64,000 nt of DNA, from IMG/VR virus record IMGVR_UViG_3300032007_000052, positions 1 through 64,000 of that record; one strand, written 5' to 3'. This DNA is from a virus (taxonomy: Duplodnaviria > Caudoviricetes). Under the pieces are notes generated by a model. That model searched no databases. It saw only the letters and a program-made list of their open reading frames with translations, and had not been told where the DNA came from. Shown here one piece after another: positions 4,576 through 61,131 of this stretch. A program made the position numbers and the translations under genes. Within the stretch, counting starts at the first letter, position 1. Each line of letters begins with the position of its first letter.

Positions 4576-5715
4576 ATGAGTAATAAAGAATTTTTAGATT
4601 ACGAGGGTTTGGGTTATTTAGCTGAACATGTTAATTTACAAGATGGCAAAAAGATTGTAAAGAAGTTACGAACTGGCGAAACTACATTAACGATTACGGA
4701 TTCAGTGATTACAACTGATTCTATTATTGACATTTATTCTGATTTATATGGTGCTTATGCTACTTCGGTAACACAGAGCAATGGTTCACTTAGTATTACT
4801 TTTCCAGCTCAAGATAGGGATTTAAATATAATTGTAATTGTAAGAGATGGTAGGGGAGGTGGCATTAACCCTACCGGAAATGCTGTTGAGGGTGATGTTT
4901 TACTTAACAAGACTTTCTCAAATGATGATGGTGTTGATAAGGTTGGAACAATGCCTAACAATGGTGCGGTATCTCCATCTGCATTATCTCCAAATGGTAG
5001 TTATACAATACCTGAAGGATATCACAATGGAAATGGAGTTGTGACTGCAAGTCCGAATACGGGTACATATTCTCCAACGACACGCAATGCGGCTCTTGAC
5101 ATGGGTATTGATAATCTTAACAGATATGTTGATACAACGGGAGTTCCTAATTCAAATACAGAAACTTACATTGCTTCGTCTCGTGGTGCGTCACTTGATA
5201 TGGGTGCAACAAATTCGTATAGATATGTAAATACAAATGGAGTACCCAATAGTAACAGTAGTACATACACTTACCCAGCAAATGATACGGGCGGAACAAA
5301 AGACCTCGGTGAGACTAACACCTACCGCTATGTAAACGCTTCTAACGTTTATAATAAAGGGATTACAGATAGTGGCGTTTTGTACGAATTAAAGATAACA
5401 CACGCAGTAAATAGTAACAAGATATATTTAACAATCATAGAACTTGTTAGTAATACAACTAAAGTAAATAATAAAGAATTTACTACCGGAACGGTAGGTG
5501 GAAATCCTTTATTTACACAATCGGTAGATGGAATTACTTTTAACGCAAAGATTGGGGATGGAACAAGTAATGTTTATGCTGGAACATATAATGTAACAGC
5601 TTCAAAAGGAACTTCAACTAAAACGAAAAGCATACCACAACACGGAGCTGGAAACTGGTCAAATAGTTATACGTTGATATTTGATTTTATGTTAAAAGGC
5701 TCAACGATTTATTAA
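4576..5715 (+). CDS. fibre-like protein A (paralog of 8454-9374)
   Basis: GAGGTG RBS, FLDYEGL N-terminus, repeated LDMG..N.YRYVNTNGVPNSN units, unique C-terminal domain after NVYNKG. Confidence 0.7.
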   Translation: MSNKEFLDYEGLGYLAEHVNLQDGKKIVKKLRTGETTLTITDSVITTDSIIDIYSDLYGAYATSVTQSNGSLSITFPAQDRDLNIIVIVRDGRGGGINPTGNAVEGDVLLNKTFSNDDGVDKVGTMPNNGAVSPSALSPNGSYTIPEGYHNGNGVVTASPNTGTYSPTTRNAALDMGIDNLNRYVDTTGVPNSNTETYIASSRGASLDMGATNSYRYVNTNGVPNSNSSTYTYPANDTGGTKDLGETNTYRYVNASNVYNKGITDSGVLYELKITHAVNSNKIYLTIIELVSNTTKVNNKEFTTGTVGGNPLFTQSVDGITFNAKIGDGTSNVYAGTYNVTASKGTSTKTKSIPQHGAGNWSNSYTLIFDFMLKGSTIY

Positions 5716-5760
5716 ATAAAATGATTTTTATAATGCCGACAATGTTGTAGGGAGGGAGCC

Positions 5761-6267
5761 ATGTCAATAATTAATTATTTAGATTATGACGGTATTGAAG
5801 AGGTCGCTGATATTATAAATAGGCGAGATGGGAAAAGAATAAAACGAACATTACTAGCAGGACAAACTGAATTGGTGATTACTGATCCATGGATAGATGA
5901 TTCTGCTGTTATTGATATATATCCGGAATTTTACGGAATTGATCCAATTAGTGTTATCCAAAATGGGTCAACACTGACGTTAACTTTTATGCAACAATTA
6001 TTTGATTTAGATGTTACTGTCGTTATTCGTGATTTAACCCGTCGTGAGGGGGGTGAGGGTGATATGTATAAGGCTGATTATGATCCAAATGAGGATGTTT
6101 TAGATGCTGGCGGTATTCCAGAATATGTACAAGATGTGATGGACACACACGAGGCTTCTTATGATTCGGATTCTGCTGTTAAAAACGCTGGCGGTATAGC
6201 TGACTATGTGCATGATTATTTAATTACAGAGGAGCAGTGGACGCAGATTAATTCGATTCTAAGTTGA
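5761..6267 (+). CDS. fibre-associated adaptor-like protein
   Basis: YLDYDGI N-terminus; shares a ~65-aa beta domain with 4576 and 9906; two repeats of YD....V..AGGI..YV. Confidence 0.6.
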   Translation: MSIINYLDYDGIEEVADIINRRDGKRIKRTLLAGQTELVITDPWIDDSAVIDIYPEFYGIDPISVIQNGSTLTLTFMQQLFDLDVTVVIRDLTRREGGEGDMYKADYDPNEDVLDAGGIPEYVQDVMDTHEASYDSDSAVKNAGGIADYVHDYLITEEQWTQINSILS

Positions 6268-16985: not shown

Positions 16986-17843
16986 ATGGCAAACGAGATT
17001 AAGGTTCAACAGAAACAGGGTATCAATACTTTTCTTCAATCGGATGCTGTTAAGCATAATATTATGTCTGTTGTTGGAGAGAAGGATAGTCAGAGGTTTA
17101 TTAGTTCGGTTGTGAGTGCTGTTCAGAGTAATCCACAACTTGCAGATTGTTCTAATTCTAGTATTTTATCTGCGGCTTTGCTTGGTCATAGTTTAAAATT
17201 GCCACAATCTCCACAACTTCAGATGTTTTATCTTGTTCCTTTTAATAATACTAAGAAGGTTAAGGATGAGAATGGCAGGGAGAAGGAAATCAAGGTTAAA
17301 GAGGCTGTTTTTCAGTTGTCTTACCGTGGATATTTGCAGCTTGCTATGAGGTCGGGTCAATACAGAAAGATTAATGCTTGTGATATTCGTGAGGGTGAGC
17401 TTAAGAGTTTCAATCCTATTACTGAGGAATATGTTTTTGAGGCTATTACTGACTATGAAAAGAGAAAGTTGCTTCCGGTTGTGGGTTATTATGCTTATTT
17501 TGAAATGAATAATGGATATCGCAAGGAGTTGTATTGGTCTAAAGAGCAGATGGATGCTCATGCTAAGCGGTATTCTATGGCCTATAGGAAGGGTTGGAGT
17601 AGTTCTTTCTGGGCTAGTGATTTTGATGCCATGGCTCTTAAGACTATGTTAAGACAGCTTATTTCCAAATGGGGCATGATGTCTGTTGACATGGAGACTG
17701 CTTACCAGAATGATATGGCTATTGAGGATGAAAATGGTAATCCTGTTTATGTAGACAATGTTTCAGATGGTCCTGAAAAGGCTGTTGATGTATATGCTGA
17801 TGTAGTTGCGGAGAGTGTTGCGGATGATAGTCACGAAGGATAA
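16986..17843 (+). CDS. recT: RecT-family single-strand annealing recombinase
   Basis: FYLVPF, AVFQLSYRGYLQLAMRSGQY and FDAMALKTMLRQL motifs. Confidence 0.9.
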   Translation: MANEIKVQQKQGINTFLQSDAVKHNIMSVVGEKDSQRFISSVVSAVQSNPQLADCSNSSILSAALLGHSLKLPQSPQLQMFYLVPFNNTKKVKDENGREKEIKVKEAVFQLSYRGYLQLAMRSGQYRKINACDIREGELKSFNPITEEYVFEAITDYEKRKLLPVVGYYAYFEMNNGYRKELYWSKEQMDAHAKRYSMAYRKGWSSSFWASDFDAMALKTMLRQLISKWGMMSVDMETAYQNDMAIEDENGNPVYVDNVSDGPEKAVDVYADVVAESVADDSHEG

Positions 17844-18636
17844 TTATTTTGATGTTGAAACTAATTTGAATTTTGTGGATTGTTCGACGTATAAGAATTT
17901 TGAGGGTACTCCTGGAATTAAAGCTTGTGAATGTAAGGCTTTAGCGATTGCTAAAGGGGAATACAAGCGTCCTATGACTGATGCTCTTATGGTGGGTAGT
18001 TATGTGGATGCGTTTTTTGATGGAGCTTTGGGTGAATTTAAGGAGAAAAATCCTCAAATTTTTACTGCTAAAGGTGAATTGAAGGCTCAATATAGGCAAG
18101 CTGAGGTTATGATTCAGCGTTGTCTTAAAGATGAGTTGTTTATGAAGTACATGCGTGGTGATACGCAACAGATTTTTACGTCAGAGATAAATGGTGTTCC
18201 TGTTAGGGTTAAGCTTGATAGTTTTGACGGCAGGAGAATTACTGACTTAAAAACTTGTAAGAGTATTTCTGAGACTTATTATGCTAAGGATTTGGGGGAG
18301 CGGTTAGACTTTATTACTTATTATGGGTACATTGAACAGGCTTATTTTTACAAGAAGGTTATGCTCAATGTTACTGGTAAGGATTATCCGTTCTACATTT
18401 GTGCTGTTACTAAGGAGAAAGAGGATGGTGTTCCTCATCCTAGAATTGCGGTTATAAACATCCCGGATAAGGTTATCTGGGAAAAGGGCAAGGAGATTGA
18501 GATGAAGCTTCCAAAAGTTTGGAAACTTTTGAGGGGTGAGATTAGTCCTATTCCTTGTGGTACATGTTCATGGTGTGCGGATAATTTGGCTTTAAACAAG
18601 GTTTTAAGCTTGGACGAGTTGTTATTGGAGATTTAA
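17824..18636 (+). CDS. PD-(D/E)XK exonuclease (RecE/DUF3799-like)
   Basis: ALMVGSYVDAFF, VKLDSF...ITDLKT and YGYIEQAYFY motifs; adjacent to recT. Confidence 0.8.
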   Translation: MIVTKDNYFDVETNLNFVDCSTYKNFEGTPGIKACECKALAIAKGEYKRPMTDALMVGSYVDAFFDGALGEFKEKNPQIFTAKGELKAQYRQAEVMIQRCLKDELFMKYMRGDTQQIFTSEINGVPVRVKLDSFDGRRITDLKTCKSISETYYAKDLGERLDFITYYGYIEQAYFYKKVMLNVTGKDYPFYICAVTKEKEDGVPHPRIAVINIPDKVIWEKGKEIEMKLPKVWKLLRGEISPIPCGTCSWCADNLALNKVLSLDELLLEI

Positions 18637-36724: not shown

Positions 36725-37291
36725 TTATACTATATCAGAATATCCTAGAAGCATCTGGTCTTCTTCATAGGAACTTACACCTAAATATCTTTGAGTAATA
36801 GCAGGACTGCTATGTTGATAAAAATTCATTACTTTAATAATGTTGTAGCCACTTGCTTCATAGAGATTCATTCCACAATATTTCCTAAATGAGTGAGTAG
36901 ATATGTTTTCATATTCCAAAAAATCACATACCTTTTTTAGATATTTTTGAACTGATCGTTCTGTCATAGGGAATATGAGATCATTTTTCTTTATTTCATT
37001 TTCCTTGATGTATAAGTTCAAATGCTTATAGAACTCGTGACTGATGCTCTTGTAGCGTTTCTTTTTTGTTTTCTGCTCAATTATACTAATCTTATAAATA
37101 CCACCCGCAAAAACGAAGCTAGAGGGTTTTAAAGCTAATACATCCTCAATACGGATTCCTAAATTTGCTTCGGCTATAAGAACTTCTGATATTCTGATGT
37201 TTGGTTTGAAATAGTATGAGCCTGTTCTCATTGCTTCGATAATTGTTTTATATTGGTGTCTGGTTAACGGTACTGTTGCGTATGCTCCCAT
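36725..37291 (-). CDS. small tyrosine recombinase (catalytic domain only)
   Basis: R (GIRIED), K (EQKT), HSFRK, H (QHSS) and Y (TQRYL) all present. Confidence 0.88.
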   Translation of the reverse strand: MGAYATVPLTRHQYKTIIEAMRTGSYYFKPNIRISEVLIAEANLGIRIEDVLALKPSSFVFAGGIYKISIIEQKTKKKRYKSISHEFYKHLNLYIKENEIKKNDLIFPMTERSVQKYLKKVCDFLEYENISTHSFRKYCGMNLYEASGYNIIKVMNFYQHSSPAITQRYLGVSSYEEDQMLLGYSDIV

Positions 37292-38470: not shown

Positions 38471-39637
38471 TTATACGATAATCTTATTGAAAAACTCTTT
38501 TAAAATATCGAAGTAGCCTTTCTTTTTTGACATTTTATGAATCAATGGCACACCTGATTCATTGTTTGGCACTTGAGATTTTAGCGAAGGTTTGCATGAT
38601 TCCTTTGTTGGTACTTCAATGCGGAGTGCTTCAGCTAAAATTCTCTTTTCTGTTTCGTTCATATAGGCCGATTGAATTCTCAATGGTTCAAAGGATCCAT
38701 TTCCCAGGAATAGCATGTCACCTTTTCCATAAAGTTTTTCAGCTCCATTACGGTCCATTATGATTCTCGACTCTAGCGAAGTAGTGGTCTTCAATGCGAT
38801 TCGAGTCGGGATATTTGCTTTGATTAGTCCGGTTACGATGTCTTTACGTGGGGACTGGGTTCCGATTATGAGATGGATTCCACAAGCACGAGCCTTTTGA
38901 GCGATTCTCACTATAGGCTTCTCAATGTCTTTGAATTGAAGCATGAGATCTGCAAGCTCATCAATTATAACAACTATAGGATTCATTTCTCCTGGATATG
39001 AATAGATGTCTTTAGCTCCAGCACTTTGAAGTAATCTATATCTTTTTTGCATTTCTTCCACAAGATTATTCATTGTGATATACATTTTTGATACGGATGT
39101 AATTACTTCCGTATTGATGCAATTGTTATACATTGAAAACTCATTACCTTTTGGATCAAGTATAATAAGTTTAGCTCCAGTCTGAGGAAAACTATAGGCT
39201 ATACTTGCAGCGAAGCAGTGCAGCAACTCAGATTTTCCGCTTCCGGTAGTACCACCTATAAGAATGTGCGGTGCTTTTGATAAATTTGTATAGACTTTTT
39301 TTCCGTTTTCATCAACTCCTAAAACGAGTCTTAATTGTTTTCCTCCCAGAACATCATAGAATTTTGAGAATGCAACGGGTGTAAATTTATCTAACTTTTT
39401 ATCAATGTATATACATCCACCAGTACGTGTGTAGGTGAAGTCTATAGTATTTAGTGCGGAAGACAATGCTTCCTTCAGTATTCTTTCTGCACTCAAGACT
39501 TTCTTATAAGTCATGAGATCATTAGGAAGTTTAATCTCAAATTTTACTGTTCTAGGGCAAAGTATAACATTAGTTACGACAAGGCCCAGGAAAGCTATCA
39601 ATTCATTTAATGCTTCAACATCTCTTGTAAAATCCAT
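38471..39637 (-). CDS. FtsK/SpoIIIE-family ATPase
   Basis: PHILIGGTTGSGKS Walker A, VIIDELADLM Walker B, ARACGIHLIIGTQ and GAEKLYGKGDML. Confidence 0.9.
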   Translation of the reverse strand: MDFTRDVEALNELIAFLGLVVTNVILCPRTVKFEIKLPNDLMTYKKVLSAERILKEALSSALNTIDFTYTRTGGCIYIDKKLDKFTPVAFSKFYDVLGGKQLRLVLGVDENGKKVYTNLSKAPHILIGGTTGSGKSELLHCFAASIAYSFPQTGAKLIILDPKGNEFSMYNNCINTEVITSVSKMYITMNNLVEEMQKRYRLLQSAGAKDIYSYPGEMNPIVVIIDELADLMLQFKDIEKPIVRIAQKARACGIHLIIGTQSPRKDIVTGLIKANIPTRIALKTTTSLESRIIMDRNGAEKLYGKGDMLFLGNGSFEPLRIQSAYMNETEKRILAEALRIEVPTKESCKPSLKSQVPNNESGVPLIHKMSKKKGYFDILKEFFNKIIV

Positions 39638-47668: not shown

Positions 47669-47887
47669 ATGAAGAATACGATTACTGATTTAAATAATCA
47701 TCTGTTTGAGCAGTTAGAGAGGCTAAATGATGAAGAGATTACAGGGAAAGAGCTTGAACAGGAAATAAAGAGGGCAGAGGGCATAGTAAAAGTTTCTAAC
47801 CAGATAATAATGAATGCGGAGTTAGCTTATAAAGTTTCCGTTCTAAAGACACCGAACGTACCGGAGATGTTGGAGATAAAAAAATGA
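47669..47887 (+). CDS. small phage protein preceding HNH
   Basis: MKNTITDLNNHLFEQLERLND motif. Confidence 0.7.
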   Translation: MKNTITDLNNHLFEQLERLNDEEITGKELEQEIKRAEGIVKVSNQIIMNAELAYKVSVLKTPNVPEMLEIKK

Positions 47888-48669
47888 GAAAAGTGATGAA
47901 AGACGAGGTAAAAACCTTTATAAAGGAGAATTACTTGCTTAAGTCAGACTTGCAGCTTTTATATTTGATAGAGGAAAAGTTTGGAGAGACACTAACTGTA
48001 ACGGCGATAAAATCATATAGAATCAGGAATAACCTTAAGAAAACGAATAAATGTAAAGCTTTAATGGATATGGATGAAAAGATAGTAATTGATTACCTTA
48101 AAAAGCATGTAGAAGGGAAATCAAACTTAGAATTGATGCGGATGGTAAACAAAGAGTTCAATCTAAACTTTACATTTGAGCAGTTTAAGGATTTTAAATC
48201 AAGAAGAGGACTTACCAGTGGGAAAAGAGGATGGCATAGGGTAGGAAATCCACCAGGAAATAAAGGACATAAGATGACGGAGTACACGACAGAGGAAAAA
48301 TTAGAGAATAGCCGAAAAAATCAGTTTAAGAAAGGTGAAAAACCGCATAATTATGTCCCTGTAGGAACTATTTCAAGAAATTCCTATAATCAATTAAGGA
48401 TAAAAGTTGATGATACTACATGGGAGACTTATTCTAGGTACATTTGGGAGAAAGAAGTTGGAGAAATTCCAGAGGGAATGAAAATTGCTTATAAAGATGG
48501 GAACGTTGAGAACTGTTCTATCGACAATTTGATGTTAGTAAGTCAAAGTGAACTAATGTCGCTAAATCATAGAGGTTTTAGAAGCTCATGTGCTAAATTA
48601 ACAGAGGCAGGATTAGCTTCTGTTAGATTAGAAAACAGAGTAAACGAGTTAAAGAAAGGGGATAAATGA
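47884..48669 (+). CDS. HNH-family endonuclease-like protein
   Basis: QFKKGEKPHNYVPVGT...IWEKEVGEIPEG...KDGN.ENC.IDNL. Confidence 0.75.
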   Translation: MRKVMKDEVKTFIKENYLLKSDLQLLYLIEEKFGETLTVTAIKSYRIRNNLKKTNKCKALMDMDEKIVIDYLKKHVEGKSNLELMRMVNKEFNLNFTFEQFKDFKSRRGLTSGKRGWHRVGNPPGNKGHKMTEYTTEEKLENSRKNQFKKGEKPHNYVPVGTISRNSYNQLRIKVDDTTWETYSRYIWEKEVGEIPEGMKIAYKDGNVENCSIDNLMLVSQSELMSLNHRGFRSSCAKLTEAGLASVRLENRVNELKKGDK

Positions 48670-51477
48670 CTGATTTATTAACGATTGCAGAGGCGCGTAT
48701 TGCTGAAAAGCAGGTGCAAGAGATTGAGAAGGTAAAACAGAGGCTTGAAGCTGACAGAGATGTTTTGAAACAGGCCATAGAGCTTGTTAATTCACATACT
48801 TTGTATAAAAAGGTGGAAACCTATAGATATTGTTATAAGTACGTGCTTGTGACTGAGGATATGCTAAAAGCTGATTACCTTAAAGAGTCTAAGTATGGTT
48901 GGCAACGCGGAATAAAATTTAAAAAAGGTGATTCTTCAAAAAGTTGGAATACTGGGATTTTAGAGGTTAACGGAGAAACCTATTACGATATTAGATTTGC
49001 CTTAAATGCCTATGAAAAAGATGTAACTGCAAGGGAATATGAGATAGGTCATTTGCAGGATAAAATAAATGAACTCAAAAAAGAGATTGAACAGCTTAAC
49101 AATGATTTTCCGTCCCTAAAGGAAGCTATTGAGGAGTGGATGGCATACCAGGAGGAGCAAAAGAAGAATGAAGAATGAGATTCTTGAGCTAATATCTGTT
49201 TTTTTAGAGGATAGAGGATATAAAGTTGATTATGACGATGGAGCTATTTACGTGGATAATTTGAGGATTTTAGTAGAAGAGGATAAGTAATGACAAAAAC
49301 AGTATGTGATATTTGCGGTAAAGATATGCCTTTAGAAATATATTCAAGATCAATTAAAAATTATAAATTTTGTATATCAAGTTATGGAAAAGTATGGGAT
49401 ATATGTAATGAGTGCAGGGAGGAACTTAATAACTGGATGAAAAAACGAAAGGCAGAAAATGTAGAAAATGAAGAATAGTTTCTCAATTATGTATATCAAT
49501 GGGAAGTATTATACGTATTCGGTTACGTGTGTAAATGGAAAAGTATATGTTGATATAAATGTAATGTAAAAGTGATACATAAGGGGGCTTTATGAGCAGA
49601 GCAATAACAGTTACATTCGATAAAACAGAAGAAGATATACCTTGTTTATGCGTTACTAGGCAGGTTTTTAGCTTATGTGGGAATGAAATATATGTTGATA
49701 AGGTTATCACAGGTGAAAAAGCTGAGAGATTATGGGATGAGCTAACAAAGTCTAAAGCTGATAGATGTGAGGTTAAGTAATGGGAGAAAGAAATCCGTTT
49801 GAGTTAGATGATTTTACTTTTGATTTGCTTAGAGTGTTCATAAAACATGGACTTGGCAACATGAAATTGTATGAAACTATATGTTTTCAGTGTCAGTTAT
49901 GTGACGAAACTGCACTTATGACGTTGGCAGAGTTTTATGAGAAGTGTATTCCGAGTGAGTTTGCATTATGGAGAAAGGGAAATAAGACTTTGACATTCTC
50001 TGATTGGTTGGATGAGAACTGGGAAGAAGGTAATTTGTGTCCGCCACCTTTACCAGCACAAGAAGCTTTGTATTTCTTGCATGATTATCTGCTAGAGGGG
50101 TGGTATTCTACAATGCCTATGAGTACGGAGCAGGTAAACACTGAAATGGTGGATATGATATTGCAAAAACATTCAAAAAAATACAGGAAAGAGCTAAAAG
50201 AAAGACAGAAAAATGATAAAACGTGAGGATGTTTTAGAGATTGATTTTAACCGTATCTGTTCTACATATACTAGACCAGCGGAGCATATTTATAATCTTA
50301 TAGAGAGCATTCCTGAGCAGAAAGTAGTACCTGAGAGAGAGGTTTACAAGCTTGTAGGTGCGATTCTAGCTGAGATTGATTCAGATAATAGGGGTAGTGC
50401 TGATTATTTCATTGTAGACAGGATTGAGGAGATTGTTGAAAGGTGGTTAAACCGTGACAAATGAGCAATATTCGACTGCTAAAAAACTTAAGTCAGACAT
50501 TGATACGCTAGAAAAAATTTACACTGAGATTAAGGTGAACCATGGTCAAACAGGGCCTATTAAAAGTGTTATTTTGCGGATTGATTTTGAAGAGTTTGTC
50601 CATGAGGAAATTATTAAGCTTAATAAGGAATTTGAGAAACTATAAAATGTATTCGGATGACTTTTTTTACTTCCAAAATTGATAAGTACTAGTCAGAAAC
50701 GAGGAAAACATGAGTTTGCATATTACAGACAAGGAAGCACAAAAACTATTCAATAAACTTGAATATAAAGGCTGTAAAAACTGTCAGCATCAAATAGCAC
50801 CATTAAGGATGTGCAAATGGGCTGAACAAGGTGGTGATGGACGCATACATTTGATTTGTCCTATGTGGGATAAAAGAGGTTAAAGAGAATGAGAACTATA
50901 AGCGAATGGAACAAATATCTCGAAGATTTAAAAACATTAAGAGATAAGATTTACGAGGGTACAAAAACTACAGATGGATTATGTATACAGTTGTCAATGG
51001 AAGATTGTGATATTATATGGGAACTGTTAAGTAGTGAAGCAGATGAGGTTTTTAACACTCCATTAGAGTTTTATATGAGGGATAATGAAAATTATGATTG
51101 ATGAAGCGATTAAAACAGAAGAAAATATAGCAGAAGAAAATCAAAGAGTTGTTGATACTGGTATTGTATTTGACGACGTGACAATTGATATGCTCTACTG
51201 TGATGATACCGAAGTGATAGAGGAACATTTAGCAAATTATCAGAGGCGTGCCGAAGAACACAGGCAACTTGCAGAATGGCTGAAAGAACTGAAAAGCTTA
51301 AAAGAGAAAGACGAACCTAAAGCAGTACGTTATGAGGGTGACGGATACGCAGATGGTGAAATGGTTTATGACATGGCATTTTGCCCTAACTGTGAGCATG
51401 AATTTGAAGAGGACTCAGAAAATTGGATGTGTGATTTTTGTCCTAACTGCGGTCAGAGATTGAGGTGGGAAGAATGA
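48666..51477 (+). CDS. run of small overlapping hypothetical ORFs (48666, 49290, 49592, 49780, 50213, 50454, 50889, 51085)
   Basis: Tightly packed + strand ORFs with RBS and ATGA overlaps; several CxxC zinc-ribbon motifs. Confidence 0.6.
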
Positions 51478-51485
51478 CAAAAGGA

Positions 51486-51770
51486 ATGATTGTTAATATA
51501 TGCGGAATACCACACAAAGTAATTGAGTGCGAAGACAACTTTAATGTTGATACACATTTCGGTCAGATAGATTATAAGGCTTGCGAAATCAGAATTAACA
51601 AAGATATGTCACAAGAAAGCAAGGACGAAACACTTTGCCATGAGATGCTACATGGAATATTAGTTCACCTTGGATATAATGATTATTCGCAGGACGAACA
51701 ATTAGTGCAAGCACTTGGAAACGCCATATATCAAGGATTCAGCATTAAGGCAGAGAGTGAGGAAACATGA
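51486..51770 (+). CDS. HExxH metallopeptidase-like protein, copy 1
   Basis: TLCHEMLHGIL; near-duplicate of 53827-54111. Confidence 0.75.
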   Translation: MIVNICGIPHKVIECEDNFNVDTHFGQIDYKACEIRINKDMSQESKDETLCHEMLHGILVHLGYNDYSQDEQLVQALGNAIYQGFSIKAESEET

Positions 51771-53479
51771 GTGGAGGAGATTATAGCTATATATATAGCA
51801 AGTTATCAATGGAATGTGAAGGCAGAATGTATGACGCTGAAATGAATGATTTAATTAAAGATTTGTGCGAAGTTTTGCATGACCTTGAATGGTGGCAAAG
51901 TGGGGATACTTCAGAAGAACGTTATAGAAATACACTTACGAAGTTTAAGGCTAAGTGGTTTAAGGGTGACAGGCAGGAACGCTTGAAAGGATATATAGAT
52001 GAGCAAATAGGCATTGTGAGAAGTCAGCTATATTCCTTGATAGGCGAGCCACAGGAAAGCGAGGAAACAGAGCCATGATAGAAATTATAAGTCAAGGAAA
52101 AAGTCTAAGCGAAGCAAGAGTAAAGTGTACGGTGGCAAAAATATTACTTACAGAACTATTACCCGCAGAAAAGATATCAGCAGATACGACTGTCAAATTG
52201 TTAAATGCTATCGGCGGTATAGGTATAGTAGAAAGTGAGGATAAGGAATGAAAAATAATGTACCTAATTATCCGCTGATGGTAATGATTGTTCTATTAGA
52301 AGGTTTCTTGTTTGGGCTAATCGTAGAAGCAATGAGGTGAGTAAGAATGAAAGATAATATCTATTGGCACATATTCAGCAGATTAAAGAAAAAACATCCG
52401 AAATGGAGCAAAAAGCAAGTTGGAATGTTTGCGTACAAAGCGAGGAATAAGAAATGACAGAATACACATTTGAAAACAATGCACTCTATAGATATATACC
52501 TATTGATGCTAACACAACAAAAAGGGAATTAGTTATTACAAAAGATGAATTTCTCATGTGCTACATAAAGTGGATATGCCCTGAACTGCTAAATCACTAA
52601 TTGGAAAAGTTAAAGAAGAACATTGAAGATAAGGTTTATAATATATCTGCATATAACGAATGTTTAGATTGCGATGTTATAGATTATGAGGATGTAAATG
52701 AAATTATTCAAGAAAAAATCAATGCACTAAAGGAGAATAAAGATGGGAAGAAGTAATTTAATACCGATTACAAGAATCTATGACATTTATCCTAAATACA
52801 CATACAGTGATGATGTTAAAAAATTCATGGATGAAATTGTAGATATTGACCGAGTCAATGTTTACACGAAAGATGAAATAATAACTATGCTTACAGATTT
52901 GGAGTTGGACATTGAGGAAAAGGAAAGCGATTACAAAGATAAGTTTATGCAAAGGTCTAATATAATACATGAAACCGCTATGAATGGAAGAATGTTCGGT
53001 TGTGGAGAATGTAAAAACCTAATCCAGAAGAAAATTGATGCTTTAAATATGGAGAATACCCGAAAATAGAATGAAAACATTAAAATATTGCCCTTATTGT
53101 GGTAAAGAAATCGAGGTAGAAGAATGACAAGAGAAGAAATCATAGCAGATGAAAGATACCATACTTGCGGAAGGTGCAGATGGGGAGATTTAAACGAAGA
53201 TTTATACCCATGTAATAAATGTATTCACGGTGTTGATAAACGAGAGGATTTTTGGCAGTACGCAGAAAGTGGGGATAATGAATGAGTTTTGATAAGGAAT
53301 GGGAAGTTGAAGCCACTATTGAGATTAAAACATCATTTTTTTGCGACACAAAGGAAGAAGCGGAGAAAGAAGCACATAAATATTTATCAGAATTATGCCA
53401 AGGCTTATACCCCGATTGTTGTTCAAATAGCTACGAGATTGAGGATATATATAGCTATACAGAAGATAGTCAAGGTTAG
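51767..53479 (+). CDS. run of small hypothetical cassette ORFs (51767, 52743, 53282 and others under 60 aa)
   Basis: Separated by the GAAAGYGAGGA junction motif. Confidence 0.55.
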
Positions 53480-53522
53480 TCAAGGTTAGTCAAGGATTTA
53501 GTCAAGAAAGCGAGGATAAGGA

Positions 53523-53827
53523 ATGAGAATTGAAAAAACAGAAACATTTATCGAACACGATATTATCATGGATGGTACGAAGGTAGGCAATGTGGAACTT
53601 TGCCCTGAAGTAATGAGATAGCAAGGCTAGTTATCTTTGAGCCGTATCAAAACCAAGGTTATGGAACATATGTTGTAAAGAAACTGTTAGCACAAGGGTA
53701 TAAGTCCTTATGGGTGCGTTCTGATAATCCAAGGGCAATTCATGTTTATGAAAAGTGTGGATTTAAAAAGGGTAACACATATATGTTCGAAATGGTAGCG
53801 GACAAGGCAGAAAGTGAGGAAGAGTAA
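53523..53827 (+). pseudogene. frameshifted GNAT acetyltransferase
   Basis: MRIEKT...ELCPE, then a frame change near 53610 into EIARLVIFEPYQNQGYG...NPRAIHVYEKCGF. Confidence 0.7.
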
Positions 53828-54111
53828 TGATAGTCAATATATGTGGAATACCCCACAAAGTAATTGAGTGCGAGGACAACTTTAATGTTGATACGCACTT
53901 TGGTCAGATAGATTATAAAGACTGCGAAATTCGTATTAACAAGAATATGACTGAGGAAAGCAAAAAAGAAACTATCTGCCATGAAATGGTACATGGAATA
54001 TTAGTTCACCTTGGATATAATGATTATTCGCAGGACGAACAATTAGTGCAAGCACTTGGAAATGCAATATATCAAGGATTCAGCATTAAGGCAGAAAGTG
54101 AGGATAAATGA
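53827..54111 (+). CDS. HExxH metallopeptidase-like protein, copy 2
   Basis: TICHEMVHGIL. Confidence 0.75.
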   Translation: MIVNICGIPHKVIECEDNFNVDTHFGQIDYKDCEIRINKNMTEESKKETICHEMVHGILVHLGYNDYSQDEQLVQALGNAIYQGFSIKAESEDK

Positions 54112-54220
54112 TAGTTAGAGTAATAAAAGATATACTTATCATCCTTTACATCCTGGTTATGCCTATGTGGTTAATGGAATTGTTAGGAATTGATAAATAT
54201 TTTGTAGAAAGTGAGGAAAC

Positions 54221-55975
54221 ATGATACAGATAGATGATTTTGATTTACCGATTACAGTAGCGGAAAAGATTATTGGTGCTACTAAAAATGTTCTTGCGAG
54301 TCCGTTAGATAAAGCGGCATATAAAGCTTTTACAGGAAAAGAAATTGGCGAAACAGTAAGTAGAGATATGTTTGAACTGGAAGAAATTAAAGAAATAGCT
54401 GATTACTTAATGGTTTACTATCAAGCACATATCAACGGAGATTGAAGATTAAGGGAAGCAGAAAGTGAGGATGAGGAATGAATATGGATTATTCTAAAGT
54501 CTTTGAATTGCTAAACCAAGATGCAGAAAAGGAAAGAAATAAAAAGGCTGATGTTAAACAGCAATTATTAGATAAATTATCAGAAGAACCTCTAATGGTA
54601 TTATCAACTGCTTATGCCTATGCTAAGAATTATGTGATCTATGGAGAAGATATAACAAAAGCATGGACTACAGCAGTACAACAAGCATCGATATTAGAAC
54701 AGGTTAAACTAAAAGCGCAAACAGAAGCCTATGATTCTTTTAAGAAAGATTACGAAAACCGCTTAAAGACTGAAATGGCAGCTATGCTAGACAAGATAAA
54801 AGCTGAAATAGAGGAAGAAAAGGAACATGCTTATGCAGATTTTGAGAGGTACAAAGTAGAGTATTTAGGACAAGAGTGGGAAGATGCTTTAGACAGTTTG
54901 CCAATAGACGATTTTAGGTATGGCATGGAAAGAACAATCGAGATTATTGACAAGTACAATAATAGTGAAGGATAAAATAATGGCAGATATAGAGTTAGTA
55001 ATTGACATACCTGAAGAAACATATATTTATTTGCGCAATGGTGGAACTATTGGGGCGTCATTAATGATTGAGAACGCAATCAAGAATGGTACACCACTTC
55101 CTAAAGGACATGGAGATTTAAAGGATATAAGCAAGATTGATTATCAGCCTGGTTGTTTTGTTTCATCTGAAGGAGAACCAATACCAATAATACACAAAAT
55201 TGCAACTATTGAAATGATACGAGACTGGTTGCCAACAATCATAGAAGCAGATACGGGAAAGTGAGGATAAGGAATGATTGAGATAATAAAGCGCGGAACA
55301 AAACAACATCGGATATGTAGTGCGTGTGGTTGTGAGTTTACATTTGAAAAAGAGGATATAAAACGAGAGGATACGGACGGTTACAAGGGATTCCGAGATT
55401 TCGTGCAGTGTCCACAGTGCTATGAGAAAGTTATTTTGCAGCAGATTAGATAATGATAAGTCAGAAAGTAGGAATGAAATGACAAATGGAGAAAAAATAA
55501 AAGAAACATTTCCGCAAGCAGAAATAATACCACAGTATGTTACTGATATAGGGCTAATAGGATATGACGTATGCATAGACGGAGAAACTTATTTTTCTAA
55601 GGAGTGGTGGGACATGGAATATCAAGAGCCAGTTACTAATTTAGAATCTGCTGAGGTCCTCGACAAATACAAATCAGAAAGTGAGAAAATATGAATGAGT
55701 TTTTAGAAAGATATTATACAGTGCAACCTATTAAACCGGATGAAAACTATTTTTACGCTTGTGAATATATGGCACTAACAGAGATGTATGCAAGAAGTCT
55801 TACTACTAAACGGTGTGAGTATGATAAGACAGAAGCTGATATAGATGATACTAAGTGGCATAGAGAGTTTTTCAATGAATATAATAGGTCTATTAGATAT
55901 AAATATATAGAAATATGGCCAGAGATTAGGGAAGTAATAAAAAACATGGCAATTATACTGCTCAAATGTGGATAG
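54221..55975 (+). CDS. run of small hypothetical cassette ORFs (54221, 54478, ~54980, ~55274, ~55479, 55691)
   Basis: Starts embedded in the junction motif. Confidence 0.55.
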
Positions 55976-59856: not shown

Positions 59857-61131
59857 ATGGTTTACGTACTTGATCAAAACGGACAGCCTTTAATGCCTAC
59901 GGAAAACCATGCTAAAGTGCGTGTTCTTCTAAGGCAAGGTAAGGCAAAAGTAATAAAGAAATGTCCGTTTACAATACATCTGTTATATGGTAGTACAAAC
60001 TACACACAAAAAGTGACTTTGGGTGTAGACAGTGGAAGCAAGCATATCGGTATTTCAGCAACTACAAAAGACAAAGTTCTTTACGAGGCCGATGTGGAAC
60101 TTCGGAGTGATATTGTGGATCTGCTTTCTACCCGTAGGGAATTAAGAAGTTTAAGACGTAATCACAAGACCCGTTACCGCAAACCACGATTCGATAACCG
60201 CAAACGTAAAGACGGATGGTTAGCACCTTCAGTAAGGCAGAAAGTAGATTCTCACTTAACGATGATAGCAAAAGTACATAAGATACTTCCAATATCAAAT
60301 ATCGTAGTAGAAGTAGCCTCTTTCGATATACAGAAGATCAAAAATCCAACTGTCAGCGGTACAGACTATCAGCAGGGTGAACAGCTAGGCTTTTGGAACG
60401 TCAGGGAATATGTTTTATTCCGTGATGGTCATGTATGCCAATGCTGCAAAGGCAAGTCCAAGGATAAGATCTTAAATGTTCATCATATAGAAAGCCGTAA
60501 GACTGGTGGCGATGCACCCAACAACCTCATAACGTTGTGCGAGACCTGCCACAAGGGTTATCACAAAGGAACAGTAAAACTTCCCAAGGCGATACACAGA
60601 GGGATGTCATTCAAGGATGCTGCGTTCATGGGTATCATGCGATGGGCTTTGTATGAGAAACTTAAGACCATATACCCGGACGTAAGGCCTACATACGGAT
60701 ACATCACTAAGAATACACGTATAGAAAACAATTTATCAAAAGACCATTATGTAGATGCTCGTTGTATCAGCGGCAATCATAATGCAGTCAGCAATGGCGA
60801 GGTTTTCTATTATAAGAAAGTCCGCTGTCATAACAGACAGATACATAAAAACACTATTCTTAAAGGTGGATATCGAAAACGTAATCAGGCCCCATACGAA
60901 GTAAAAGGGTTCAGATTATATGATAAAGTCCTTGTTAAAGGACAGATAGCTTTTGTTTTTGGCAGACGAACTGATGGGAGATTTGCTATCCGCAAATTCG
61001 ACGGAACCAAGATTAATGAGCAAATGTCATACAAAAAGATTAGACTTATAGAACCACGAAAAAATTTCATTTGTGAAAGGAGGACGCCGCTCCTCATCGG
61101 GGCAAGCCCCGACGTTCCCGCGGCTGTTTAA
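59857..61131 (+). CDS. iscB: RNA-guided endonuclease IscB
   Basis: PLMPT N-terminus, RuvC-I LGVDSG, Arg-rich bridge helix, RuvC-II VVEVA, CxxC-HH...NLITLCxxCH HNH, RuvC-III HYVDA. Confidence 0.93.
   Translation: MVYVLDQNGQPLMPTENHAKVRVLLRQGKAKVIKKCPFTIHLLYGSTNYTQKVTLGVDSGSKHIGISATTKDKVLYEADVELRSDIVDLLSTRRELRSLRRNHKTRYRKPRFDNRKRKDGWLAPSVRQKVDSHLTMIAKVHKILPISNIVVEVASFDIQKIKNPTVSGTDYQQGEQLGFWNVREYVLFRDGHVCQCCKGKSKDKILNVHHIESRKTGGDAPNNLITLCETCHKGYHKGTVKLPKAIHRGMSFKDAAFMGIMRWALYEKLKTIYPDVRPTYGYITKNTRIENNLSKDHYVDARCISGNHNAVSNGEVFYYKKVRCHNRQIHKNTILKGGYRKRNQAPYEVKGFRLYDKVLVKGQIAFVFGRRTDGRFAIRKFDGTKINEQMSYKKIRLIEPRKNFICERRTPLLIGASPDVPAAV

Follow-up and report, generated by a model that had tools for sequence, protein, structure and literature searches.

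The locus described here raises the question of whether a short sequence repeated between small phage genes serves translation alone or also marks the points at which such genes are gained and lost. It lies in the first 64,000 nucleotides (hereafter the window) of the IMG/VR virus record IMGVR_UViG_3300032007_000052 (Duplodnaviria; Caudoviricetes). The record is a complete genome of 94,032 bp with direct terminal repeats and a G+C content of 35.7%. It encodes a portal, a major head protein, a 2,132-aa tape measure protein and a large terminase, along with a DnaD-like replication organiser, ParA/ParB and several HNH endonucleases. Within the window, an array of small genes is joined at about half of its borders by variants of one linker of ~20 bp, placed just before the ATG of the downstream gene. 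In an initial annotation this region was proposed to be an integron-like but integrase-free cassette system, in which a translation-coupling linker doubles as the recombination boundary. Our analysis leads to a narrower reading, to which we assign a probability of roughly 55%: the linker would couple translation and would also act as a preferred recombination boundary in a large pool of rumen Lachnospiraceae-type phages.

The linker and its sites in the small-gene array

The initial annotation had listed 14 copies of the junction, and at every one of these positions the motif, or a variant close to it, precedes the ATG of an open reading frame (ORF). The array and the sites are as follows, with peptide tails given up to the stop codon:

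50696–55975, + strand: small-gene array, ~26 same-strand genes of 30–165 aa, about half of them linker-joined
50696–50713, + strand: linker variant GAAACGAGGAAAACATGA, non-coding; precedes gene 50710–50883
51753–51770, + strand: linker variant GAGAGTGAGGAAACATGA; tail AESEET on the first HExxH copy; starts 51767–52078
52055–52078, + strand: linker with strict core and 9-nt spacer; tail QESEETEP; starts 52075–52251
52231–52251, + strand: exact 21-mer (strict core); tail VESEDKE; starts 30-aa ORF 52248–52340
52437–52457, + strand: linker variant AAAGCGAGGAATAAGAAATGA; read in another frame (YKARNKK); starts 52454–52600
53265–53285, + strand: linker variant GAAAGTGGGGATAATGAATGA; tail AESGDNE; starts 53282–53479
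53506–53526, + strand: exact 21-mer (strict core), non-coding; preceding ORF stops at 53479; starts a GNAT pseudogene
53810–53830, + strand: linker with strict core and spacer AGAGTA; tail AESEEE; starts the second HExxH copy
54094–54111, + strand: linker with strict core and short spacer; tail AESEDK; starts 38-aa membrane-like ORF 54108–54224
54207–54224, + strand: linker with strict core; tail VESEET; starts 54221–54445
54461–54481, + strand: near-exact 21-mer (strict core), non-coding; starts 54478–54975
55257–55277, + strand: exact 21-mer (strict core), read in the third frame; upstream ORF ends at a core-internal TGA (..TGK); starts 55274–55453
55464–55482, + strand: degenerate linker (variant) GAAAGTAGGAATGAAATGA, non-coding; starts 55479–55694
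55677–55694, + strand: degenerate linker (variant) GAAAGTGAGAAAATATGA; tail SESEKI; starts 55691–55975

The consensus of the linker in this genome is (C/G)A-GAAAGYGAGGA. Its strict core, GAAAGYGAGGA, occurs eight times in the whole 94,032-bp genome, always between 52055 and 55257 and never on the opposite strand; the other six sites are variants. With up to three mismatches allowed, the 21-mer GAAAGYGAGGAWAAGGAATGA gave six matches compared with none in shuffled sequences, and the 12-mer AGAAAGYGAGGA, with up to one mismatch, gave 14 compared with 0.7 expected, 12 of them within 51.6–55.7 kb and all on the plus strand. Eighteen of the 21 linker bases are purines, the only variable base of the core is the wobble base of a serine codon (AGY), and the spacer varies from 3 to 9 nt across the sites of the window. 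Within 50.7–56.0 kb there are ~26 junctions, of which the motif marks only about half; the others have ordinary Shine-Dalgarno sites.

Each copy had been described as supplying the acidic tail of the upstream gene, a ribosome-binding site and an ATGA stop–start overlap. The overlap is general: all 14 sites end in ATGA, and its TGA is the stop codon in nine of the ten upstream ORFs that reach the motif. The tail is less so. Eight sites read as acidic xES(E/G), seven of them as xESE and that at 53265 as AESGDNE, whereas two (52437 and 55257) are read in other frames and four (50696, 53506, 54461 and 55464) are non-coding. The linker contains stop codons in two of the three reading frames, and a stop–start overlap was also present at 180 of the 314 sites of a wider set. 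From this arrangement, we infer that the linker may couple the translation of successive genes.

The annotation had also regarded this form as peculiar to the array, and we found this to be the case. Structural genes use AGAAAGG, GAAAGGA or GAGGTGA as Shine-Dalgarno sites, and the 148 other called genes of the genome carry these and like words (AGAAAGGAGG or GAGGTGA), with the array form in none of them. A host-wide ribosome-site consensus, named in the annotation as one of two results that would refute its proposal, is not what we observed: Butyrivibrio sp. INlla21 has 10 cores in 3.3 Mb and Eubacterium ruminantium ATCC 17233 has 14 in 2.8 Mb. In both of these cultured Lachnospiraceae the cores are clustered in short arrays, for example eight within 3.2 kb of one contig. 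A host or genome-wide ribosome-site consensus was ruled out by the restriction of the core to the array, the ordinary sites elsewhere and the rarity of the core in hosts.

For pairing with 16S rRNA we used the tail CCUCCUUUCU, which we assume, in keeping with the phage's own sites, to be the canonical Firmicutes-type sequence. The ribosome sites of the other genes together tile AGAAAGGAGGTGAT, the complement of this canonical tail. The assemblies of the two cultured hosts contained no pattern or small-subunit rRNA match for the 16S 3' tail, and the pairing rests on the canonical sequence. With this tail, the linker is predicted to form a duplex of 6 bp, a 1-nt bulge and 4 bp (~-12.5 kcal/mol), in which AGAAAG is paired, one pyrimidine is bulged and GAGG is paired; the linker form without the bulged base is AGAAAGGAGGA. 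By comparison, the median over the genome is -9.85, and no more than 19% of the other genes attain the strength of the linker. The complementarity to the canonical 16S 3' end lies within the 5–9 nt from the start codon that we took as Shine-Dalgarno distance. The linker is thus predicted to be a strong, bulged and extended Shine-Dalgarno sequence, and the conservation that the annotation had noticed 5' of the Shine-Dalgarno site is accounted for because AGAAAG is itself predicted to pair with the canonical tail. Neither the bulged base nor the TAAGGA spacer is accounted for by this pairing.

The array as a whole probably forms one polycistronic accessory or early unit. We counted 57 promoter-like sites inside it compared with 56 in shuffled sequences, which fits one long transcript; a promoter upstream of the array was not identified. 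Promoter/terminator cassettes were ruled out as an explanation of the repeat, given no enrichment of such signals, no promoter match on the motif, no -35/-10 hexamers and no hairpin in or beside the linker. Tandem duplication of one gene family was likewise rejected, with a single paralogous pair among the 29 ORFs in and around the array.

Spread of the linker and gene gain and loss

At least 117 IMG/VR contigs contain the exact 21-mer, as do 30 contigs of prokaryote assemblies, mostly from Lachnospiraceae of the rumen or ruminant gut and including draft genomes of both cultured hosts named above. These contigs are otherwise unrelated, with any DNA at ≥85% identity in only 123 of ~6,800 pairs. 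Their flanks, 1.07 Mb in all, contain 306 cores, on a single strand at each locus, and 76 of the 117 loci have at least two. On either side of the 314 core sites analysed, the proteins group into ~135 families upstream and 166 downstream, which form 243 distinct pairs, the downstream proteins having a median length of 74 aa. Because these families are many and unrelated, the linker is a portable junction of small-gene arrays and not the end of one family. The TAAGGA spacer, which has no role in the pairing, is identical at 147 of the 306 core sites and still at ~16% of the sites not selected for.

A single 21-base junction, partly inside coding sequence and common to a community of unrelated phages, is notable in comparison with known junctions, and our literature search, limited in range, found no description of the motif in rumen phages. 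We suggest, tentatively and with more doubt than confidence, that the 21-mer may be a community-wide "plug standard", a linker kept by phages without other shared DNA so that annealing recombinases (RecT, Erf and similar) can move translation-ready single genes. If so, the linkers postulated by modular theory would have a working instance in nature, acting on single genes, and the 21-mer would leave an ESEDKE "scar" on unrelated proteins by virtue of lying partly in coding sequence. The motif also flags accessory-gene arrays of rumen phages, likely to hold host-takeover or anti-defence genes, and could serve to harvest such arrays from metagenomes.

A Megablast search with the array as query returned nothing from 50,697 phage records, and tblastn of the HExxH protein described below against cultured phages returned only distant matches (≤40%) in Clostridium, Streptococcus, Staphylococcus and Lactobacillus phages, with no cultured phage carrying such an array. 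The radical-SAM-like gene adjoining the array, used as a query for whole-phage relatives, retrieved one contig at 38% protein identity. Because this sole relative is so distant, a whole-genome comparison with near relatives was impossible, and we therefore located breakpoints in cassette-level relatives.

Several pairs of contigs differ by single genes whose ends coincide with the linker. A 306-bp gene lies exactly between two linkers in contig L014 and is absent from L031; the gene that precedes it is 99% identical in the two contigs, and the DNA upstream of that gene's linker is unrelated. The homologue of window gene 51767–52078 lies between two linkers in L076 and is absent from L041, and L052 corresponds to L109 minus the segment between two identical 21-mers. 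The window genes themselves match different contigs one by one, in alignments that start and stop in linkers and do not keep the neighbouring genes. For example, homologues of window genes 50710–50883 and 54221–54445 are adjacent in L074 and 3.3 kb apart in the window.

A similar pattern emerged from counts over 251 loci. A homology breakpoint was found at 82% of motif junctions compared with 46% of motif-less ones (odds ratio 5.4), at 61% compared with 23% when alignments were restricted to ≥95% identity, and at 83% compared with 63% when only tight junctions joining one small gene to another were counted (odds ratio 2.9, p = 6e-6); these ratios are rough, because the loci were mostly fetched through the motif, the events are not independent and the gene calls are heuristic. 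The proposal that the linker serves as a recombination boundary is therefore upheld in part: single-gene indels can end exactly in it and breakpoints are in excess there, but motif-less borders break as well.

The array contains a dispersed gene duplicate, a pseudogene and fragment-sized ORFs, as the initial annotation had stated. The first two are:

51474–51770, + strand: HExxH (SprT-like) small gene, copy 1 (PF10263, 23.6 bits, below cut-off; phrog_1233)
53827–54111, + strand: HExxH (SprT-like) small gene, copy 2, paralogue of 51474–51770
53523–53827, + strand: GNAT acetyltransferase pseudogene, with a frameshift near 53610 and a C-terminal piece matching PF00583 at 35.6 bits

The two HExxH proteins are 91% identical. 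Similarity between their genes begins at the start codon and stops within the linker, beyond which the sequences are unrelated; identity is 83% over the 5' 163 nt and 97% over the 3' 107 nt that abut the linker. A conversion tract that stopped at the junction would produce such a distribution. Compared with its intact homologue in contig L132 (81% identical), the GNAT pseudogene has lost a single nucleotide; it still has the exact linker in front of it. The fragment-sized ORFs comprise several of 30–48 aa.

Two further observations concern the contigs that share these genes. Beside the linker, many otherwise different small genes open with a second recombination-prone repeat, a segment of ~35 nt that codes for the N-terminal peptide MSDLISRQAAIDAL (L009 ~5700–5790, L109 ~400–1100, L096 ~150–210 and L106 ~340–2740, in motif-oriented coordinates). 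Deletions between two copies of this segment leave micro-ORFs of 18 codons (MSDLISRQAAIDALQGRK followed by a stop), and in the family counts the segment merges many proteins into one large single-linkage "family"; no copy of it was found in the window genome. The near-identical contigs L279–L334 of sample 3300045988 contain homologues of window gene 51767–52078 that share residues 1–66 only and have a different C-terminus. These homologues have an ordinary GAAAAGGAGA ribosome site and conserved neighbours, which indicates that the gene also lives in another phage lineage in a linker-free, non-mosaic setting.

Proposed mechanism, known junctions and rival explanations

In the reading that we favour, the linker would act at two levels. 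At the RNA level, AGAAAG and GAGG would pair, in the real host as in our prediction, with CCUCCUUUCU around the bulged pyrimidine; the short spacer and the ATGA overlap would come next, and a ribosome ending one small gene would be handed on to the next. At the DNA level, the direct repeats of 20–30 bases within the genome and across co-resident phages and prophages would provide short homology. The linker would be the best short homology available in the arrays because it is long, identical and directly repeated within and between co-resident phages. Single genes would be deleted, inserted, duplicated or replaced at the linker, with every exchange rebuilding a working junction, and an acquired gene would arrive expressed. 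Breakpoints would then be placed by short homology rather than by selection. The route would probably be phage single-strand annealing recombination, here by RecT and an exonuclease. The recombination genes of the window are:

16986–17843, + strand: RecT single-strand annealing protein (PF03837, 142 bits), candidate catalyst only
17806–18636, + strand: PDDEXK-like protein (DUF3799; PF12684, 200.7 bits), adjoining RecT
36725–37291, − strand: tyrosine recombinase of 188 aa, catalytic domain only (the only PF00589 match)

The DUF3799 protein is, judging from its sequence and position, the probable exonuclease partner of RecT. The annotation's suggestion of RecT as the catalyst thus stands as far as the gene and its exonuclease-like neighbour are concerned, and a part for RecT in the exchanges themselves is plausible. 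Phage Rad52-like recombinases have been reported to drive mosaicism via relaxed homologous recombination (PMC3945230). The RecT and DUF3799 genes (16986–18636) are located among the virion genes, directly before the gene for the 2,132-aa tape measure protein and outside the replication region.

An ordinary Shine-Dalgarno site with an ATGA overlap gives translational coupling by termination–reinitiation. The linker resembles such junctions in its GAGG core 6–7 nt from the ATG, its stop–start overlap and a pairing that reaches into the 16S tail, a trait of many Firmicutes genes. Ordinary sites, however, are unconserved outside the pairing bases, precede any class of gene and are not shared as identical 21-nt stretches between unrelated genomes.

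Integron cassettes depend on IntI, attI, attC and Pc. The array shares with them one-orientation runs of mostly promoterless single-gene units, a repeat at the 3' end of each unit and presence/absence polymorphism at that repeat. The integron analogy nevertheless does not fit, with no attC-type hairpin, no dedicated integrase beside the array and no cassette promoter identified. We found no recombinase-like gene beside the array (50.7–56 kb) and no attI, the only PF00589 match being 13 kb away; the linker has no self-complementarity of the attC kind, and terminator-like hairpins number 6 in 45–59 kb compared with 4.9 in shuffled sequences. Any exchange here would be general or based on short homology, and not site-specific. 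The description of the system as integrase-free also needs correction, since the genome does encode the 188-aa tyrosine recombinase at 36725–37291 (− strand), although nothing ties this protein to the array.

In anatomy, the closest known system is the Start-Associated Sequences (SAS) of Cluster K mycobacteriophages, asymmetric 13-bp repeats with the consensus GGGATAGGAGCCC (Pope et al. 2011; PMC3203893). Like SAS, the linker is a short asymmetric repeat (of 11–21 bp) that combines a Shine-Dalgarno core with conserved non-pairing bases, lies a few bases before start codons and sometimes includes the stop of the preceding gene. Each of the two is present about a dozen times per genome, always in the same orientation, in the non-structural region only and before varied gene families, and is nearly absent from the host. 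The features of the SAS type (a core 3–7 nt before starts, one orientation, non-structural location, mixed families and rarity in the host) were all found here, as a functional likeness and not as membership. The consensus differs (GGGATAGGAGCCC compared with (C/G)A-GAAAGYGAGGA), as do the hosts, Mycobacterium and Lachnospiraceae-type bacteria being of different phyla. SAS occurs in one phage cluster, whereas the rumen 21-mer occurs in >100 contigs without other DNA similarity; the upstream inverted-repeat extension frequent in SAS (ESAS) was not seen here; and no recombination role has been reported for SAS, whereas motif-bounded indels are found here.

In proposed dynamics, the closest system is the promoter-early stem-loop (PeSL) cassettes of T4-type phages (Arbiol et al. 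2010, PMC2839356; Comeau et al. 2014, PMC4122927). There too, conserved expression signals recur among the small orphan genes of hyperplastic regions, relatives differ by gene indels and replacements that terminate in the repeat (here L014/L031, L041/L076 and L052/L109), and recombination between repeats has been proposed to move a gene together with its expression signal. A PeSL, however, is an intergenic transcription unit of ~100 bp with a sigma-70 promoter and a terminator hairpin. The rumen linker is a translation signal of ~20 bp that lies mostly in upstream coding sequence, with no promoter or hairpin. Excised mini-circles have been demonstrated for PeSL.

The modular theory reportedly goes back to Susskind and Botstein, and Clark et al. 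are said to have described boundary sequences in a comparison of HK620 and lambdoid phages as "linkers" for module exchange. The likeness lies in homologous recombination at short conserved gene-border sequences, which gives mosaics with unbroken genes; the difference is that one defined sequence here marks a large share of the array joints, community-wide. As expected of a boundary sequence, the same sequence was found at the ends of exchanged segments and breakpoints are concentrated in it, although the effect is moderate (odds ratio 2.9–5.4) in a motif-ascertained sample. Whether mosaicism stems from recombination at short shared boundaries or from random illegitimate joining followed by selection is still debated, largely because shared boundary sequences have rarely been found. 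One defined 21-base junction in >100 otherwise unrelated contigs of one ecosystem, with clean gains and losses of single genes, makes the boundary question testable.

A number of results weigh against the linker as a recombination boundary, in addition to the roughness of the odds ratios. Motif-less gene borders were broken in 46–63% of cases, and clean gene indels without any motif were observed in L019/L138/L054 and L105/L140; selection for intact genes alone could therefore place many of the breakpoints. Of the 89 recent alignments (≥95% identity), a single one is bounded by the motif at either end in each of its two contigs. When homologues of two window genes were fetched by protein similarity, some were flanked by the motif on each side, others on a single side and others not at all, with ordinary Shine-Dalgarno junctions or intermediates such as AGAAAGGAGGAATGA in its place. 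Some of the motif's spread may consequently reflect ordinary descent, with a ribosome site drifting by point mutation. In other phages the spacers that come after the 14-mer GCAGAAAGTGAGGA are of many kinds, in a scan that mixes true and looser sites; the core alone is a widespread Shine-Dalgarno form, and only the extended 21-mer is taken here as the shared element. The linker is accordingly a preferred boundary, and not the sole one, in a setting where all gene borders are fluid.

Most of these results would also fit a linker that is a translation signal only, a popular strong Shine-Dalgarno and ATGA junction of small early genes, with breakpoints arising from illegitimate recombination and selection and with sharing due to descent or convergence. 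We regard this explanation as possible but less likely than the dual role. It agrees with the strong predicted pairing to the 16S tail, with the position of every copy on the coding strand just before an ATG, and with the view that most mosaic joints of well-studied phages are without conserved boundary sequences (PMC3029335). It does not account for the identity of the non-pairing TAAGGA spacer, for an exact 21-mer common to contigs without other DNA similarity, for a breakpoint excess that holds in matched small-gene junctions and in recent alignments, or for the deletion between two identical 21-mers; structural genes with equal or stronger sites, moreover, never have the array form. The limitation of the motif to one non-structural gene class, in one orientation and with conserved non-pairing positions, would also suit a class-specific regulatory site, in which a phage or host factor (a translational repressor or activator, an RNase or a small RNA) would recognise the bulged pyrimidine and TAAGGA in the mRNA and switch the accessory set jointly. 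The same role was suggested for SAS, of like anatomy (PMC3203893). We consider it improbable here: no candidate factor was identified, half of the array junctions are without the motif, which would make co-regulation patchy, and the spacer varies in the window from 3 to 9 nt. Motif-bounded indels, though compatible with such a site, would be left unexplained by it.

The conserved entity might instead be a functional peptide, an acidic C-terminal xESEDKE acting, for example, as a stability or targeting tag with the ribosome site written in its codons. In favour of this, 78% of 183 exact 21-mers read ESEDKE followed by a stop, and the only variable base of the core is a serine wobble. However, 15% (28) are non-coding and 7% (13) are in other frames, yet all are identical (in the window, those at 53506, 54461 and 55257), which indicates that DNA or RNA is conserved rather than peptide. 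Because only the ESEDKE frame yields the ATGA overlap, a bias towards it is to be expected; the tails vary freely with the spacer (EET, EEE, EDK and EKI), and they are attached to unrelated families that also occur without them. A tag is therefore a very remote prospect. We give still less credence to an integron-like site-specific system, in which a dedicated recombinase would recognise the linker and excise and insert cassettes. The small tyrosine recombinase at 36725–37291 and the cassette-like indels bounded by a repeat could be cited for it, but that gene is 13 kb off and on the other strand, the purine-rich, asymmetric linker cannot form an attC-like hairpin and nothing like attI or a cassette promoter was found. 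The crossover points, moreover, are not fixed, spacer lengths differ and many junctions are without the site.

Other features of the genome

Three HNH genes are located around the array, and as possible homing elements they could add to local gene conversion. Two are large, similar and 5 kb apart (window 59857–61131 and genome 65340–66590, the latter L149:1340–2590; phrog_119, E ~1e-61 each), and the third, smaller gene (window 47884–48669) is just upstream of the array. The ParA/ParB pair at genome 80194–81865 (L149:16194–17865), together with the 188-aa tyrosine recombinase and the direct terminal repeats, makes a plasmid-like prophage lifestyle possible.

A 501-aa ORF at genome 69201–70706 (L149:5201–6706) matches DNA methyltransferase families at residues 1–99 and 431–495; the intervening residues 97–439 match a stretch of a ribonucleotide reductase family and look like an intein or other insertion. 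Near the right end of the genome, two large ORFs match the transposase family phrog_506 (85412–87022, L150:2412–4022, E 1e-15; and 91617–93050, L150:8617–10050, E 1e-22). Finally, the leftward block between the virion genes and the array contains an FtsK/SpoIIIE-like ATPase (window 38471–39637, − strand; phrog_1358, E 4e-72).

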